A stretch of DNA of 38,641 bases from a virus (Duplodnaviria; Caudoviricetes), in the IMG/VR virus record IMGVR_UViG_3300046318_000254, positions 1 to 38,641 of that record. One strand, given 5' to 3'. Below are positions 1,223 to 12,419 of this stretch, one piece after another. The position numbers and the translations under genes were made by a program. Under the pieces are notes generated by a model. It saw only the letters and a program-made list of their open reading frames with translations, was not told where the DNA came from and made no database searches. Position 1 is the stretch's first letter. Every line of letters begins with the position of its first letter.

Positions 1223-2836
1223 TTATCCGGCGTCCCGGTCGTGACCAAGAGCATACAACGAAGTAAGAGACATTGCACGTTCGATGTTTTTGTTCACGCC
1301 TTGCGCTGGAACATGGTTGGCATATCCAGTTCCTGTTCGACCGTAAGATGTTCTGGCGGGTGGCCGTGGAACTCCAAATCCAGATACGCCTTTCGCGTCA
1401 ATGGCACCCCCGTGCGCCGCATGAGGCTGATCAGCGCCTCCTGTAAACCACGTTGGCGGGCGGATGCCCCCTGCTTTTTTGACGACCTGATTTCTTGCTT
1501 CATCTTGGCTAATCTCCCCGTTGCGGTATTTGGACCAAACGCCGTCAATGTCCTTGGCGTTCTTGGCCGTTTTGAAGGTATCTGGGAACAGGCCGCGAAC
1601 GGCTTCCCATGTAATGGACTGCATTTCTCGCGGATGGATACCACGCGCCTTGGCTGCCCGCCTGTAGGCTTCAGAGTATAACGGATATGTGCCCTGAATG
1701 CCAGAAATAGCTGACCCGCCAGCGTTTGGCTGGCCCTTTCCGGCATAAGACCCAAAGTTGTGCGCCACCTCAACCGAATTGCCTGACAGTGGGCGCATCA
1801 AGGCGGCTGCTACGGCGTGGGTGTCGATTGTAACATCGCCCTTGGATGAGTTGGGGTGCAAGATGTTGTTGTAAAAGTTCCGAACCTTATGCTTTTCACC
1901 CATCAGTTCAGACAATTTTTGTGGATCGTGCGCCGTGTCAAGCGCCTGAACCGCTTTAGCGATCTCAGTAAGGGAACCCCAGCCCGCGCCAGCGTTTGCG
2001 CCGCCCTTGGTCTTGACGAAATCCCCCATTGTGCCTTCTGGGTTTACAATGTGGAAGCTTTTTGGGTTGTAAGTTTGGTCGTGAAGCCTGATCCACATGG
2101 CTTTGGCAATAGCCTTTTCGTCATCTGGGATATTTGCGCGGTCAATATCGCCCAAAGACTTGCCACGGATCATGTTGTGAAGGCCGCCATATTCCGGCTT
2201 GTTGAGGGACTTCGTGTTTTGAAGGGTCTTTTCCATTTCTGGGCTGAACGTGAAGCCACGATAGAAGTTTTCGCCCATGCCGTGCATGGTGTGGATGACA
2301 CGGTGTGCCAGAGAGACGTTTTGATACCAGTCTTTTTGTGGCGACATGGCGGCCAACACACCTGCGATGGCGTGATCAGGAAGATTGTATTCTTTTGCCC
2401 ACTTTTCAGTGATAGCCCGCGCTCCATCGTACCATTTTTTACCGCGCTCCCGAATTTCCGGCGGTACAGCATCGTGCAGCGCCAGAAGGTTCTGCGTGGC
2501 ATGGTCAATAAAGTGTTCAGCAAGCGCATCGTCATTGGCATTCGCGGCCACATCAGCCCGAACATTCGGATAACCACGCACGATGCCGATGTGCTGATTG
2601 AAAAGCTTAGGCGTAGACTTGAGCGCCGCAAGGTCAACCGTGTTGGCAGTGGTGTTGGTGTCCAAAAGCTTCTTAGAGGTGATCAACCTCTGTGGAATAA
2701 GAGCAGGATTGTCAGGGCCAACCGCTGGTGTGCCAGAGCGAAACGGGCCAAGATATGGCTCCATGTTTTGAGAGATGACAGGATTGGCTGGTGTTGCTGC
2801 CGTCATCCTCAACGCACGTTTGACAAGATCAGCCAT
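1223..2836 (-). CDS. Phage protein with HhH-GPD DNA-glycosylase-like (DUF7178-like) motifs
   Basis: 537 aa; motifs [44 protein letters not shown]; abuts upstream gene with GGGGAAG RBS. Function inferred. Confidence 0.7.
1294..1503 (-). CDS. Small out-of-frame gene nested in the 3' end of the 537-aa gene; candidate immunity/partner protein
   Basis: GGGGAGA RBS 9-10 nt before ATG at 1503; 69 aa [10 protein letters not shown]...[46 protein letters not shown] is protein-like, while the host frame here is G/A/P/R low-complexity. Confidence 0.6.
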
Positions 2837-2837
2837 A

Positions 2838-5243
2838 TCACTTCCCCTTGGATTTCAGCGCCATTGTAGCACCAGTGCCGTCTTTGGAAAAGCGGCGTGT
2901 TAGGGCGAGGGCAGCATCAACGGTGCCGCCTGATGCTTTGCCGTGAACCTTACGGATCGCAGCCATAGCGTTGACCTCTTCCGGCCCCATGAAATCTTCG
3001 GCACCCTCGTGGTGAACCCAGTGGGGCAGAACCCCGACCTTCTGTGGTGCGAACGTGCTGTCTTTCGTGCGCGCTTTGCGGTTTTTCTCGCCAAACGGGC
3101 CGTAGTTGAGCCAGCTATTCTGACCGCGCGTCTCTGTGGTCATCGCCATGCGGGCGAGAGGGGAAAACATGGATGCGTGTGCGCGCCATGCGTTTTCCTC
3201 GCCATCATCGCGGAACCCAACGCCCTCTTTGGCATGGCCGAAATAGTCGTGAACGGCACGGAAAATGTCGTTTACGGTCACAGGGACGCCGTTCCATGTC
3301 TCGCCGGAAGGCTGAAGCATGGGGTTGTTTTTGATCTTCTCTTCTGTAATCGGCCCATCGCTGCCGTAACCATCTTCGGTCGGGTAGACGAACATATGGT
3401 GGTTGTTGCGGATGTCCTCGGTCGCAAGGCGCGGGGAAGCGTGGTAGGGGTCTTCTTCGGTTTGCGGGTTCCAGAACTCAGCTTTGAAGCCAGCAGCCTT
3501 GGCCGCACGGTACTGCGCCATCGTTTCCTTGATCATTGCATCGTACGAAGCTTTGGTCAGAGGATCGCTGGCATCGTCCTTCATCGCCTCGTAGGCATCA
3601 CTGATGCGCTCGGAGCGGGACGGGTCAACTCTGGCATACTTCTTGGGCGGATTGTACGGCAAGCCAGTGCTGGCCATGTAATCACGCGCAACTTGCCGAA
3701 CGCGGGGATCGGGGCCAGCGTGGATGACCTGACCAGTCATCGGGATTTTGACGGGGGTTAGGAGGCCCTCAAGAGGTGCTTCGTGCGGTGCCGGAAGAAT
3801 GCCAGCGCCTCCTCGTATTCCTCCTGCGTCTCGAAGTTCTCCCGCTTGGGCGCGTGGCGCTGGATTGATGGGTGCAACTCCAGCTTCTGCTTGTGTTCCG
3901 ACATTGAAGTCTCCATTCTGATTGTTGCCTAATACACTATTCATTTCACCACCACCAGCCTTGCCAACCATTCCGCCATCATTGCGGCGGATGCGGGGGT
4001 CATTCGGGTCGAACACCTCGGCATCCTTGTGCTTGATGGTATTTGGGTTGAACGCCACCACCTCGGAAACGCGGGATGGCTGGTCGCCCTCATGGTCTTG
4101 CGTCTTCACAATCACCCCATCGTGGCCCCGCTTCTGCATCTCTGCCATAAATGGTTGGATGTGGTGCCGCTGGAGGTTGTCCCACGGGTTAAGCTCGTCT
4201 TTTTCGCGCATGATCCCCATGGACTGAAGATCACGCAGGGTGCTGTGGGCCTTCATGTCGTTTGACACGTCCCAGACGTAGGGGTTCTTCAGGGCGGCAT
4301 GAAGCGGCCCGATGACGGTGCCACGTCCCATTTCGTCTGGATCGGCATAGCCCTCGGCGTTGCCCTTGATCGGCGTCAGGTAATGCCCACGGCCATAGAA
4401 GCCAGCATCCCGTTCGCCAAGTTTGGAGTTGTCGAATGCCTCGAACTCTTTGTCCTGTCCCGACCCGTGGTACAGATCAAGCGGCGAACCGCCCTCGCCT
4501 TGAAGGTCTGGGTGGATGCCTTGGAACATAGGGGCTGTGGCAGCGCCACCCTCGGCCTTGGTGATGTCGGGGTCGTTGGGGTCGAAGGTGCCTTGGTTGC
4601 TGATGGCGCTTTTCACTTGCTCAGGCTTGAAAACTGCCAAGTTCAGCGGCTTCCCTTCGCCTTCAGTGACGAAATAGCTATCGTGACCACGGCGCTTCAT
4701 CCACGACCTGACGTTGTCGTTTTCGAGCAATCCAAAGTCACCGCCGCGCATCCAATTGATCGCGGTCTGCGGGCTATACATCGCCCCAGAAAACCAGTTC
4801 TTAAAGTTCTTGGTCAAAGCCCCCTGAAGCGCGTCGATGTGGTCAGGGTTGCGGAAGTCGAACGGGTTCTTGGCGCTGACGTGCGCCGGAATGATGCGCG
4901 GGCTTTCACCGTAGTTGGCAAACGTCCCCGCAGTTTCAGGGCTAGTAGAAAGGTAAATTGCGTTCCCGCCAGTCTTGCGATTGGTCTTATTGCCGGGCAA
5001 CGAGAACGACGAGAAGTCTTTAGCCGCCCCTGTCCCGTGATACATGACAGGCGGCACGTCTGGGTGGTTGCCCTGCATGAACGCCACTTTGCCACCATCC
5101 GCATGGACCTGACGAGGGACATCAGGCAGGTATTTGGACGGGGCCATCTGGCCGCCAGCGCGGGTGACGGCGGTGCGGGCGCGGGCTTTGTCTAGGATGC
5201 CTGCCGCCGTCAACATTGCCGCCCGTGCCGCCTTGTCCATCAC
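2838..5243 (-). CDS. Polyvalent protein: two ART-PolyVal ADP-ribosyltransferase domains plus a C-terminal HDxxGH domain
   Basis: 801 aa; ART1 YHGT...IYLS...KNPFD...GHDSY...AVFKPEQVKS; ART2 YHGS...GRGHYLT...AEGYA...KNPY...GHDGV...EVVAFNPNTIK; third domain NDIFRAVHDYFGH...GEENAW...TETRGQNSW; start overlaps portal stop. Confidence 0.85.
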   Translation of the reverse strand: MMDKAARAAMLTAAGILDKARARTAVTRAGGQMAPSKYLPDVPRQVHADGGKVAFMQGNHPDVPPVMYHGTGAAKDFSSFSLPGNKTNRKTGGNAIYLSTSPETAGTFANYGESPRIIPAHVSAKNPFDFRNPDHIDALQGALTKNFKNWFSGAMYSPQTAINWMRGGDFGLLENDNVRSWMKRRGHDSYFVTEGEGKPLNLAVFKPEQVKSAISNQGTFDPNDPDITKAEGGAATAPMFQGIHPDLQGEGGSPLDLYHGSGQDKEFEAFDNSKLGERDAGFYGRGHYLTPIKGNAEGYADPDEMGRGTVIGPLHAALKNPYVWDVSNDMKAHSTLRDLQSMGIMREKDELNPWDNLQRHHIQPFMAEMQKRGHDGVIVKTQDHEGDQPSRVSEVVAFNPNTIKHKDAEVFDPNDPRIRRNDGGMVGKAGGGEMNSVLGNNQNGDFNVGTQAEAGVAPINPAPRAQAGELRDAGGIRGGAGILPAPHEAPLEGLLTPVKIPMTGQVIHAGPDPRVRQVARDYMASTGLPYNPPKKYARVDPSRSERISDAYEAMKDDASDPLTKASYDAMIKETMAQYRAAKAAGFKAEFWNPQTEEDPYHASPRLATEDIRNNHHMFVYPTEDGYGSDGPITEEKIKNNPMLQPSGETWNGVPVTVNDIFRAVHDYFGHAKEGVGFRDDGEENAWRAHASMFSPLARMAMTTETRGQNSWLNYGPFGEKNRKARTKDSTFAPQKVGVLPHWVHHEGAEDFMGPEEVNAMAAIRKVHGKASGGTVDAALALTRRFSKDGTGATMALKSKGK
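3758..3904 (-). CDS. Small out-of-frame gene nested in the linker of the polyvalent protein; candidate immunity protein
   Basis: Below ORF-track size cutoff. GGAGA RBS 5 nt before ATG at 3904; 48 aa MSEHKQKLELHPSIQRHAPKRENFETQEEYEEALAFFRHRTKHLLRAS; AT-rich patch upstream (3920-3947). Confidence 0.6.
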   Translation of the reverse strand: MSEHKQKLELHPSIQRHAPKRENFETQEEYEEALAFFRHRTKHLLRAS

Positions 5244-7561
5244 TTCTTACCTTTCTGGCCTTGGACCTGCATGGCTAGTTTGACCGCATCGGCGGCGTGT
5301 TGCTGGGCCTGCATGTCCTTCTCGTGCTGCATACGAACCGCGTCGTTCATGCTGTCGCGGTCCATCTTCATCTGCTCCAAGCGGATGTCGTTCTCACGGT
5401 CCAGATCGCGGTTTTCGTCGTTGGCCATATCGCGCTGGGCCGACAGTTCCATCTGGCGCTGCTTGTTCTGCTCCGTCATCATCTTGATCTGAAGCTCTTG
5501 CGGGTCTTTGCCAGCGGGGCCAGCAACGCCTGTGGGGGCTGCGGGGGCCTGCGCCTTGATCATGGCAGCCTGTGCCCGCATCGTGTCGGCGTCAGCCTTC
5601 TGGTGGGCAATCTTAACGTCTTCCATGCCCTTCATCATTTCGGCGCTGGGCTGGTTGCGTTGGTCTTCCGGCTTGAGGAACTGTTCGGGGTTCGACCAGC
5701 CAATGGAACGCAGGGCGGCCTTGTCGATGGCAACCTCATCGTAAAGGCCGGGGTTTGCGGCCTGCAACTGCTTAAGCGCCATGATCTTCATCACGCGCTG
5801 GCTGTGCGACGACGTGTTCGGGTCGGCTTGCGGCACCAGTTCCACATCGGTCAGGGCCTGCAAGAAAAGCTCCTCGTTCCATGCGATGGTGGGCTTGCGG
5901 TTGCGTTCCCAGAAGCTTTCGGGGTGTTCGCGGAAGCATTGCACCAACAGCGCGAATTCTTCGGCCTGTGCGCTGTGCATCCGCTTGTGGACGGCGTTCA
6001 AGATTTTGGTCGCCTGTTCGATCATGGCCAGCGTGGTGCCAACGGGCGCATCGGCGCGGCCCTCGCCCACTTGCAGTTCGCTGGTACCACCCACGCGCAT
6101 ACCAGTCTGGGACATGTTCTCCACCAGCGACATCAGCGCCCCCGAGGGCTCCTTGTACGGCAGCGGCATAATGGCGTCGCTGATCTTCTGGCCGCCCGTC
6201 TTGACCTGTGCCCCACCACCGGGCGGGACGCGGAAGATGTTGGTGTTCTGGCGGGCCCCAACGTCGCTGATCAGGAAGCCGGGGAAGTTGGCGTACATGC
6301 CAGCGTCCAACAGTTCGCGCCACGCTGCGGTGATCGCGTTAGTGGTGTTGCCGAGGATGTGCAGCAAGCCGATGTCGTAGAAGCCCAGACCCGGCACGAA
6401 CGTGTACTTGACGAACGTCGTGCGGGCTTCCGGCAGCATCCCATTTTCGGGCTGGTCATAGTTGCGCGTGATGGACAGGATTTCGCGGGACGACACGTCA
6501 ATGGTCACGCGGTAGGGGATTTCCAGTCCAGTGACCTTGCCCTTGAACTTGTGTTCGAACCCCTTGATGTCCAGTTCGCAGTAGATTTCGTAAATCTCGC
6601 GGTCGCGGTCTTCCGGGTTGGCCGACGTGGTGGTGATGCCCTGCTGAGACGCTTTCGCCTCGGCGGCGGCATCGGGCATAACTTCCATCGGGGTGGACAG
6701 GTCGATGTCGCGGTACACGCCAAGGATTTGCAGGCGCTTGACCGTGGACGGCTTAAGCATCACCCGGTGCGTGATCCGCATGGCGGTGGACAGGTCGGTG
6801 GCGCTGTTGTTGACGATCAGGTTGTCGGCATCCACGCTGTCGCTGGCCGGGCGGTTCCGCAGCGGGCAGAAGAACACCTTCTTGAACGAGGTGCCACCAA
6901 AGCCCAACAGCAACAGCATCCTGTCGGTGTCGGGGTAGTATTCGCGGGCGGTCGAGGTCAGGAAGTGGTTCATGTCCTTCTCAAACGCGTTGGCGATCTC
7001 ATCGCGCTGGACGGTCGTGCCATTTGCATCGTCGCGGATTTTGACGGGGCCATCGGTCGGCAAAAGCTCTGACCGTGCGTTGGCCTGAAAGCGCAGCACG
7101 GCCTCTTGCAGCAACGGGTGCCGGACCTTGGACATGCCCTCAATGGGTGCGCCGTCGCCAGTGCCTTGGATGCCCGGCAGTTCGATCTTCAGGCCCAAAA
7201 GCTTGATGCCCTGTGCGCGGTCTTCGATCCATTCATTGCGGCTTTCCAGATCGTCTTGGACGCCGCGAAGCAGGTCTTCCGCGATCCGCGCCAGTTCGCT
7301 GTCGTCGATCTTGTCGGACAGGTTGTCAAACCAGCCTTCGGGCTGACCTTCAACGTCTTCGGCGTCCGCGATGGGCTTGCCGTCCAGCGACAGGGTGATG
7401 GACCCATCGCCGTGGTCGATTTTCAGGATCGCGCCGTTCTCGTCGATTTCGGGGACATCGCCTAGTTCTTCGCCGTGGCTTTCGATCTGGACATCCATGT
7501 CGCCCAGTTGGTCTGGTTCGCTTTCGCCAAGCAGGCGGATGTTTGGGTTCAAGCCCGACAT
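5240..7561 (-). CDS. Portal protein (P22-like, with long Q/M-rich helical C-terminal tail)
   Basis: ~773 aa from ATG 7561 (GAAAGGG RBS); motifs HPLLQEAVLRFQA, ELLPTDGPVK, GFYDIGLLH, LPYKEPS, APVGTTLA typical of this portal class; downstream of terL. Confidence 0.85.
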   Translation of the reverse strand: MSGLNPNIRLLGESEPDQLGDMDVQIESHGEELGDVPEIDENGAILKIDHGDGSITLSLDGKPIADAEDVEGQPEGWFDNLSDKIDDSELARIAEDLLRGVQDDLESRNEWIEDRAQGIKLLGLKIELPGIQGTGDGAPIEGMSKVRHPLLQEAVLRFQANARSELLPTDGPVKIRDDANGTTVQRDEIANAFEKDMNHFLTSTAREYYPDTDRMLLLLGFGGTSFKKVFFCPLRNRPASDSVDADNLIVNNSATDLSTAMRITHRVMLKPSTVKRLQILGVYRDIDLSTPMEVMPDAAAEAKASQQGITTTSANPEDRDREIYEIYCELDIKGFEHKFKGKVTGLEIPYRVTIDVSSREILSITRNYDQPENGMLPEARTTFVKYTFVPGLGFYDIGLLHILGNTTNAITAAWRELLDAGMYANFPGFLISDVGARQNTNIFRVPPGGGAQVKTGGQKISDAIMPLPYKEPSGALMSLVENMSQTGMRVGGTSELQVGEGRADAPVGTTLAMIEQATKILNAVHKRMHSAQAEEFALLVQCFREHPESFWERNRKPTIAWNEELFLQALTDVELVPQADPNTSSHSQRVMKIMALKQLQAANPGLYDEVAIDKAALRSIGWSNPEQFLKPEDQRNQPSAEMMKGMEDVKIAHQKADADTMRAQAAMIKAQAPAAPTGVAGPAGKDPQELQIKMMTEQNKQRQMELSAQRDMANDENRDLDRENDIRLEQMKMDRDSMNDAVRMQHEKDMQAQQHAADAVKLAMQVQGQKGKK

Positions 7562-7581
7562 AGATGTCCCTTTCAAGGTAA

Positions 7582-10781: not shown

Positions 10782-12419
10782 TCAGGCGTTGTAAAGTGGC
10801 GCGTTCTGGTTTCCGTGGAAGACGCGACTGTCTTCAATCTCGGCCATCCGTTCCGGCGCTCTTGTGAGCATACCCACATCGCGAAGGTGTTTCAACCCCA
10901 TTGAGACGGTATCGACCAGATCGTCATGGGCACCACGGGGGAAAGACGATGTCTGCCGGATCACCATTTCGGCCCAGTCTTTGTTGGGGGCGTAGACCAT
11001 GCCTTCGCTGAAAATATGCTGGATGGAATAAAGCCGCGCCACCTTGTCGAGGGTCTTGGGGTCGTACATCTGCACCCCGAACCGGGCGTGGTTGAACACC
11101 CGCCGCAGTTCCTGCGCCACGCTGTGCCCGGCGGCCTTGTTTTCGATCAGCAACAGGTCAACCTTCATCCGCGAACATATGTCTTCAACCTTGACCACCA
11201 GATCGCCGATTTCGAGGTGATCCTGCCATGCGTACATCAGCATGACCTTGGCGGTTGCGCCGAGGGCTTCGGACTGGGTCGATGTCGCGGTTTCGATGGT
11301 GCGCCCGTAGCGATCCACCATGCGGGTCGATGCCTGATCGGCAGACGCGCTGAACACGCCCCAGATCGTCAGGGCGCTTGGGTCATTCTCGGCCTTGGTG
11401 GTGTAGGCGGTGTCGAGCGATGCCACGATGTATTCGATGGGCGGGTATTCGCCCTTGTCCCACAACTGCCACCATGCGTCTTTGACGATCCCGCCGCCAC
11501 GGGGCTCGGGGCTTTGCTGGTATTGCCCGGCGGTCGCATAGGGGCCCATCGCCGCTTCGTCGCGTTCCACGACGTGCAGAGGGAAGCGATCTTCAAACAG
11601 CAATTCGCCGTCGTCTTCCCGGGGATCGGCATAGCCCAGCCGGGTCACGCAGGCGCGTGATGGGTCGAAACGCATGGGCAGCATGATGTGGTCATAGCCC
11701 ATGTCTTTGTCGAGGATCACGCCGGACACGTCGCGCTCGTGCAGGCGCTGCATCACCACCACGATGGCTGACCGGTCAGGATTGTTCAGACGGCTGGTCA
11801 CGGCCTCCTTGAACAGGTTGGTGACGCTCTCGCGCTTGGCGTCGCTGTTGGCGTCGTCCACGCTGTGCGGGTCGTCCACGATCACCCGGTCGCCGCGATA
11901 GCCTGTGATCCCGGTAAAAGCGCAGGCCTGCCGCGATCCCGTGGCCGTGGTTTCGAACTTTGCCTTGGCGTTCTGGTCGCCCGTGATGGTGACGCGGTCG
12001 CCCCAGTGGCCCTGATACCATTCGTCGGTGACCAAGCGCCGCATCCGCAAACTGTCGCGGATCGCCAGTTCCAAGCTGTGGCTGGCGCAGACGTATCTCA
12101 TATTTGGCATGTTTCGCGGGCCCCATTCCCACGCTGGCCAGAATACGCCGATCAGCAGGGATTTCATGGTGCCGGGCGGGACGTTGACCAGCAGGCGGTT
12201 ATAGAACGTGCCGTCGTCGTTCAGGTCGCCATCCGTGATCGCTTCCAGATGGGCGCAGATGAAGTCGATGTGCCACCCGTGGATGTAGGGCTGGCCCGGT
12301 TCGATCACCGCCCACGCAGCCTTGACGAACGCCGCCAATGACATTTCGCACTTGCGCTTTTCGATGGCCCGCAGCGTTCCAGTGCGGTCCACCGGGCGCG
12401 GCAGGGTTATCACGCCCAT
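10782..12419 (-). CDS. terL: Terminase large subunit
   Basis: NVPPGTMKS (Walker A), VIVDDPH (Walker B), VMQRLHERD, LDTAYT, HDDLVD nuclease motifs. Confidence 0.95.
   Translation of the reverse strand: MGVITLPRPVDRTGTLRAIEKRKCEMSLAAFVKAAWAVIEPGQPYIHGWHIDFICAHLEAITDGDLNDDGTFYNRLLVNVPPGTMKSLLIGVFWPAWEWGPRNMPNMRYVCASHSLELAIRDSLRMRRLVTDEWYQGHWGDRVTITGDQNAKAKFETTATGSRQACAFTGITGYRGDRVIVDDPHSVDDANSDAKRESVTNLFKEAVTSRLNNPDRSAIVVVMQRLHERDVSGVILDKDMGYDHIMLPMRFDPSRACVTRLGYADPREDDGELLFEDRFPLHVVERDEAAMGPYATAGQYQQSPEPRGGGIVKDAWWQLWDKGEYPPIEYIVASLDTAYTTKAENDPSALTIWGVFSASADQASTRMVDRYGRTIETATSTQSEALGATAKVMLMYAWQDHLEIGDLVVKVEDICSRMKVDLLLIENKAAGHSVAQELRRVFNHARFGVQMYDPKTLDKVARLYSIQHIFSEGMVYAPNKDWAEMVIRQTSSFPRGAHDDLVDTVSMGLKHLRDVGMLTRAPERMAEIEDSRVFHGNQNAPLYNA

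Follow-up and report, generated by a model that had tools for sequence, protein, structure and literature searches.

Can a short open reading frame (ORF) buried inside a long phage gene be a gene in its own right, and which of its neighbors would it then serve? The question is raised by a 38.6-kb phage record (Caudoviricetes; IMG/VR record IMGVR_UViG_3300046318_000254, estimated to be 65% complete), the whole of which (38,641 nucleotides) is referred to here as the window. Within the 801-aa gene at 2838..5243 (−), an overprinted frame at 3758..3904 (−) encodes 48 amino acids, termed the PKRE peptide. We characterized this frame by its sequence, conservation, fixed position, ratio of nonsynonymous to synonymous substitution rates (dN/dS) and AlphaFold2 model. 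These comparisons indicate that 3758-3904 is a real gene under protein-level selection and belongs to an unnamed family. The gene is tied to the HDxxGH domain encoded directly downstream, for which its product probably acts as an inhibitor.

Conservation and selection of the PKRE gene

The PKRE ORF lies wholly within the ORF at 2838-5243 (−), in the +1 frame of the host gene, and spans host residues ~448-495. The overlapped host stretch is a G/A/P/R-rich linker between the second ART-PolyVal domain (ART2) and the HDxxGH domain. On the minus strand, GGAGA at 3914-3910 is followed by a 5-nt spacer (3909-3905) and the ATG at 3904, and the frame closes with TAA at 3760-3758. Both this GGAGA-5 nt-ATG arrangement and the 48-aa translation are exactly as given in the initial annotation of the window, made from the sequence alone.

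Two sets of loci were used for comparison. The first, from a peptide-only scan, contains 21 viral loci with 69-92% identity. In 20 of them a long ORF encloses the frame, always in the same relative register; in the remaining one (L021) the host frame meets a stop just after the peptide. The second set was chosen by the downstream domain and not by the peptide, and comprises the best 80 of 509 viral matches, all 53 genome matches and the best 80 of 564 metagenome matches, so that close relatives are over-represented. It holds 214 loci including the window, 196 of which have enough upstream DNA and form 143 clusters at 90% domain identity. A PKRE profile, built from 10 close peptides and 48 of 51 representatives, places the family in 89 of the 196 usable loci and 57 of the 143 clusters.

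Over a 28-codon core compared in 21 disjoint pairs, the peptide frame has a dN/dS of 0.25, against 1.57 for the host frame and 1.26 for the third, and the differences are distributed 98/90/181 over the three peptide codon positions. This both-frame comparison across homologues, which the initial annotation had proposed as a check, thus finds purifying selection in the peptide frame only. A conserved peptide with purifying selection in its own frame points to more than chance. In addition, an ATG lies no more than 40 codons from an invariant Pro in 52 of the 57 clusters. A Shine-Dalgarno motif stands before the nearest ATG in 27 clusters and before some ATG in 42, compared with 165 of 2067 control +1-frame ATGs (8%). 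The earlier reading of the frame as a real overprinted gene agrees with this selection pattern and with the retained Shine-Dalgarno-ATG, position and frame.

The host frame is kept open across the peptide gene. The PKRE ORF is nested in 55 of 57 clusters, and the third frame carries stops in 48 of 57. Of 529 sites at which a synonymous T would introduce a host stop, none has T, against ~81 expected (55 clusters, with L152 and L083 left out), a count that partly restates that 55 of 57 host frames are open. Peptide-frame selection and avoided host stops together mean that both frames are kept, the peptide frame for its sequence and the host frame only for its openness. The proposal that the gene is nested so that the polyprotein reads through it is borne out by these results.

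L021 and L083 show one contig with an in-frame host TAG directly behind the peptide, where the domain begins, which could be a sequencing error, a broken gene or a site of read-through. The peptide is also carried by the GenBank record MW202675.1 (L282:5798-6013; E 1.5e-23) and by the cultured cyanophage Pag-Yong1, OL906435.1 (L283:2011-2328; E 1.5e-9), and both records annotate the host gene only. A domain match identical to that of Pag-Yong1 was obtained for MinM2.

Start region and model of the peptide

The AT-rich patch reported just upstream of the gene is real. The GC fraction at 3900-3949 is 0.36, the lowest among 50 segments of 50 nt, and the patch together with GGAGA forms the putative translation-initiation region at 3905..3949 (−). 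In 57 relatives, the A+T excess around the start codon peaks at -20..+20, which fits such a region. No sigma-70-like promoter was found in the AT-rich patch of the window. Among the relatives, a sigma-70-like score of at least 9 is reached by 5 of 57 versus 4 of 236 controls, and a score of at least 10 by 1 versus 1, suggesting that an internal promoter of this type would be at most occasional. No structured RNA was detected at the start of the gene (z +1.0). The frame had been described as missed by the ORF track; ORF finders give it a length of 52 aa, owing to an in-frame ATG four codons upstream (3916). The Shine-Dalgarno motif belongs to the second ATG at 3904, and in the relative L009 a stop directly precedes this second ATG.

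The peptide is predicted by AlphaFold2 to consist of a P-x-R-E-x-F loop followed by one amphipathic helix, residues 27-46, with a mean predicted local distance difference test (pLDDT) score of 80. It has no significant family or fold match in Pfam, NCBIfam, PADLOC, phrog or BFVD (best PADLOC E 0.01), and no second PKRE copy occurs in its own genome.

The PKRE gene is linked to the HDxxGH domain

The HDxxGH domain (2967..3755 (−), ~263 aa) forms the C-terminal part of the host protein and is likely an enzyme. All 41 peptide-selected loci, a count that includes near-copies, have it directly downstream of the peptide. Throughout the 214 domain-selected loci, PKRE matches of at least 12 bits are confined to a position 98-163 nt ahead of the domain start, with no other occurrence in 2.1 million residues. 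The upstream side is variable. Within 270 aa upstream, the 51 loci inspected contain ART-PolyVal in 6, DUF7178 in 2, InPase in 1 and a prohead protease in 1, and most carry unnamed sequence. The initial annotation had offered two partners, ART2 or the HDxxGH domain, and had suggested co-occurrence with the flanking domains as a way to choose. The HDxxGH domain stands, whereas ART2 (4017..4493 (−), host residues 251-409) is ruled out as the partner by its presence in just 6 of 51 loci.

The pair also persists on different scaffolds. Among 40 host ORFs chosen for diversity, it is found on polyvalent proteins, on a MuF-fused protein (L210) and on LPD1/23/37 proteins, and the host proteins of relatives carry GNAT, M15 peptidase, InPase and LPD domains. 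Regardless of the scaffold, the PKRE gene accompanies the HDxxGH domain. Particularly, Paraburkholderia sediminicola (L152) has a separated form, in which the TAG of the peptide is followed by one base and then by the ATG of a stand-alone domain gene with its own GGAGGA. The 6.8-kb locus has no long virion-type ORF, as judged from the ORF list. The PKRE gene is thus small, adjacent to one putative effector domain and co-inherited with it, as expected of an immunity gene.

In the domain tree, the window belongs to a branch of 29 rows (support 99), all of which have the peptide. Another branch, of 19 rows (support 100), has a different acidic-then-basic +1 peptide, of the ETEEDG type, in the same slot, in register in 14 of 17 anchored rows. 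Its dN/dS is 0.41 versus 2.02 for the host frame, from 5 pairs only. No in-frame fusion of peptide and domain was found among the 51 representatives or in a search of longer proteins, which is weak evidence; the long hits P0150, P0163 and P0164 were dropped, as they look like repeat-protein false positives.

In P0134, P0141, P0145, P0146, P0153, P0161 and P0171, and at loci L140, L162, L170, L172, L221 and L236, the PKRE peptide or the peptide that takes its slot is joined to additional small modules, for example of the 'DDPI/F' and 'DDPxVKxL' types. These fusions suggest that there may be further hidden partner families for upstream domains.

Properties of the HDxxGH domain

Nine residues of the domain are invariant: H169, D170, H174, E186, H193, E208, R210, Q212 and N213. 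This polar set suggests a metal-binding enzyme. The domain alone is predicted with a pLDDT of 96. Its only family match is phrog_3170; no Pfam, NCBIfam or PADLOC family matches it, including the Pfam LPD and MPTase models. Sequence relatives are absent from the PDB (best E 0.44). Foldseek against the PDB gives tryptophan hydroxylase as its best hit (E 0.29, template modelling score 0.17), and the VIA structure comparison reaches a best Z of 2.5, with none at Z of at least 2 in a second look. The metalloproteins 4jiu and 1oz9 match weakly (Z 2.3 and 2.1, root-mean-square deviation 4.4-4.8, 94-98 aligned residues). The ESM Atlas returned unnamed clusters only, and predicted viral structures match only relatives, including head-morphogenesis fusions and mycobacteriophage proteins.

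Compared with zincins, the domain has an HDxxGH and not an HExxH motif, together with invariant E186 and E208. M49 peptidases carry an HExxGH motif. Identity as an M49 peptidase or as an aromatic-amino-acid hydroxylase is unsupported by any family or fold match, and lack of a match does not amount to a new fold. A distant relative of the domain (~31% identity) is present in 199 Mycobacterium phage records, and no PKRE peptide accompanies it in the one examined (L284, Rizal gp102).

A sister gene after DUF7178

The arrangement has a parallel in the adjacent gene. The 537-aa DUF7178 gene (1223..2836 (−)) reads through a second overprinted gene of 69 aa at 1294..1503 (−), which occupies the +1 frame immediately behind the DUF7178 domain. 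In a sample of the best 80 of 599 DUF7178 loci, 77 of them usable, this sister gene is present in 76, always in the +1 frame. It is nested in 45, where the host reads through, and is an ordinary overlapping downstream neighbor in 31, where the DUF7178 gene stops first. The one miss (L321) contains, by eye, a diverged sister copy, followed immediately by a second-type HDxxGH peptide and then the HDxxGH domain. Separated and nested arrangements are both seen, as the read-through idea requires, and a change from the former to the latter is the direction we infer. The sister gene occupies the classic place of an immunity gene, downstream of its domain.

No swapping of partners is observed. Sister matches in HDxxGH loci follow DUF7178 in 6 of 6 cases, and PKRE matches in DUF7178 loci precede HDxxGH in 10 of 10. 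Tandem partner genes share one linker between DUF7178 and HDxxGH at L321:2420-2800 and L091:2642-3001, and also in L317/L318. Moreover, P0161 is a natural fusion of the PKRE and sister peptides, which is expected where the two domains are neighbors. The term 'DUF7178' appears in no paper in the full text searched, in which few subscription papers are covered.

The host protein and its neighborhood

On the minus strand, the genes run in the order terminase large subunit (10782-12419 (−)), portal (5240-7576 (−)), the 801-aa gene, the DUF7178 gene and a G/K-rich gene (3-1205 (−)), with the 801-aa gene directly after the portal gene. The 801-aa protein is composed of two ART-PolyVal domains, the linker and the HDxxGH domain. 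The first ART-PolyVal domain lies at 4569..5048 (−), with approximate bounds taken from the translation, and is one of two PF18760 stretches. A domain search finds no MuF domain in this protein. With several conflict-type domains and a portal-terminase phage context, it is a polyvalent protein in the sense of the main text of Iyer et al. 2017 (PMC5512222), where such proteins are proposed to be packed into the capsid. By analogy with that proposal, its post-portal position suggests that the 801-aa protein may be packed in the virion and injected.

A [KRH]-x-x-G-G motif recurs near the host domain borders (residues 47, 229, 420, 428 and 769) and is also found at residue 89 within the first ART-PolyVal domain. 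By eye, it is present in the G/K-rich gene as well. These are possibly processing sites.

A putative inhibitor and its proposed nesting by module fusion

On balance, we consider it probable that the PKRE peptide is the cognate inhibitor of a likely virion-delivered HDxxGH effector, and that it became nested when modules were fused into polyproteins. Phages would shuffle cassettes of a partner gene plus an effector domain. Once such a cassette has become part of a polyprotein, the host frame would have to cross the partner gene, and what looks like a G/R/A-rich linker would be an acidic-then-basic peptide read out of frame. While virions are built in the producing cell, free peptide would bind and silence the domain, and the packed polyprotein would enter the next cell without it. 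The label 'immunity protein', which the initial annotation used, may apply to the peptide.

Several observations weigh against this. The PKRE family is missing from 86 of 143 domain clusters. Some Shine-Dalgarno-ATG ORF occupies the slot in 33 of these, and 53 have none by this test, which scores 47 of 57 positives and 25 of 297 and 15 of 139 controls. The invariant catalytic-looking residues are kept in PKRE-negative rows, so the domain can exist without a recognizable partner. A third set of PKRE-negative rows gives 0.57 versus 0.58 in the frame test, with no frame distinguished. No recognizable partner accompanies the stand-alone L138, mycobacteriophage Rizal gp102 or the domain in an Octadecabacter phage. 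The separated form is just one case among 57 clusters, and tight physical linkage alone would also produce co-occurrence. No activity can be assigned to the HDxxGH domain, which therefore may not be toxic. Finally, the PKRE gene is always upstream of its domain, whereas the polymorphic-toxin immunity ORFs described in the relevant passages of Jamet et al. 2017 (PMC5576092) are downstream.

About 70 nt before the domain, the host frame seems to keep S-x-x-E-A-x-A in L117, L141, L215, L220, L222, L232, L233, L243, L246, L255, L258, L267 and L273, including short genes without a +1 peptide. Both frames have a dN/dS of ~0.57 there. This stretch may possibly be an in-cis substitute for the peptide.

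Among the alternatives to an inhibitor, a cognate helper survives best, although we regard it as fairly unlikely. The peptide would then bind HDxxGH as a folding chaperone, an activator or a procapsid-loading adaptor, possibly mimicking a scaffolding-protein motif. The linkage data fit such a helper equally, and the host gene directly follows the portal gene. The peptide weakly resembles head scaffolding proteins: 10 of 57 family members match phrog_8865 (best E 0.007), and the top BFVD rows include scaffolding proteins (E ~1 over 29 residues). This resemblance, however, does not reach significance, and a short acidic helix would be expected to show it. In addition, the domain is predicted to fold confidently alone, many of its copies lack the peptide, and the L152 pair consists of two genes in a locus where no long virion-type ORF is listed.

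Less likely still is an independent small phage protein, for example with an anti-defense or regulatory role, that was born in the linker and is kept with the domain by a shared recombining DNA block. The gene is selected in its own right, is found fused to other small modules, is absent from many domain clusters and takes between 4 and 16 gains or losses to place on the tree, all of which would suit such a protein. It is nevertheless never found away from the domain, though domain identity drops to ~48% and the scaffolds differ. It persists in the separated two-gene form, and a second domain, DUF7178, has the same one-to-one pairing.

A purely translational device is very improbable. In this case, ribosomes that cross the ORF would reinitiate at the HDxxGH domain, or change frame into it, and give a short isoform, or the mRNA would be protected, and the peptide itself would be functionless. 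The ORF ends ~35 nt or less before the domain in most loci, the window has an in-frame ATG 16 nt after the stop, and stop and start are coupled in L152. On the other side, purifying selection acts on the amino acids themselves, conservation of the internal ATG is lacking (20 of 57 could be anchored, and 3 of these have ATG), and the failure of an in-frame peptide-domain fusion to turn up adds weak evidence. A chance open frame, which the short length of the ORF and the tendency of G/R-rich linkers toward an E-rich +1-frame reading might suggest, has virtually no probability left: it is refuted by the dN/dS of the peptide frame against that of the host frame, the Shine-Dalgarno-ATG, position and frame are retained, and the separated gene exists in another frame.

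Comparison with known systems

Type II toxin-antitoxin operons place a small antitoxin gene first and a larger enzyme-like gene second, with coupled stop and start. The PKRE pair shares the small-first order and, in L152, the coupling. It differs in that the PKRE peptide has no DNA-binding domain, no promoter found in the window and no Pfam, NCBIfam or PADLOC match, and is usually nested in a virion-type protein. In the lambda Rz/Rz1 spanins, which are membrane subunits of one machine, the gene of one partner is embedded in the +1 frame of the other, and embedded and separated forms occur across phages. Both features recur here, whereas the PKRE peptide is soluble and goes with a single domain of a polyprotein that is shuffled, and a genome can have several genes of this kind.

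The pair also resembles MuF toxins. In the passages of PMC5576092 that deal with them, a small ORF adjoins 89.4% of 191 muf toxin genes, and small ORFs beside phage toxin domains are proposed as immunity genes. As there, a head-associated protein encoded beside the portal combines an effector domain with a small ORF, and the HDxxGH domain with its peptide is itself found on a MuF scaffold (L210). Unlike the separate ORF downstream of the C-terminal toxin described in those passages, the PKRE gene lies upstream, within a polyprotein gene that reads through it in another frame. Moreover, HDxxGH is not a known toxin, and the protein of the window is without a MuF domain.

The multi-domain host with ART-PolyVal in a portal-terminase module is in line with the polyvalent proteins of PMC5512222. 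The HDxxGH domain departs from that set in matching none of the Pfam LPD or MPTase models. In the main text of PMC5512222, the word 'overlap' is absent, and the places inspected on immunity, antitoxin and inhibitor describe no partner genes for individual domains. The full-text literature searched, which covers few subscription papers, contains nothing on nested partner genes in phage polyproteins, nor was the PKRE family found in print. What is new here is an unnamed gene family, a variant of effector-partner pairing with a presumed function in inhibition.

Implications for polyvalent proteins

A broader generalization is tentative, and we lean slightly against it. Polyvalent proteins may be strings of toxin-antitoxin cassettes, in which the inhibitor of each effector domain is overprinted in the neighboring linker, hence the low-complexity look of these linkers. 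The hidden peptides would then add up to many unannotated inhibitors, each specific to a domain, and would point out which unnamed domains are active effectors, the first of these peptides being a 48-residue inhibitor of a metal-dependent enzyme without a matched fold.

The pairing suggests, in testable form, how a phage could produce virion effectors and yet not poison the cell in which they are made, a matter not addressed in the passages of PMC5512222 consulted. It shows how a nested gene can arise when an ordinary neighbor is fused by read-through; for two gene pairs, both states are visible. Such genes go unannotated where the host gene is called whole. A paired out-of-frame gene would provide a rule for finding effectors among unnamed domains.

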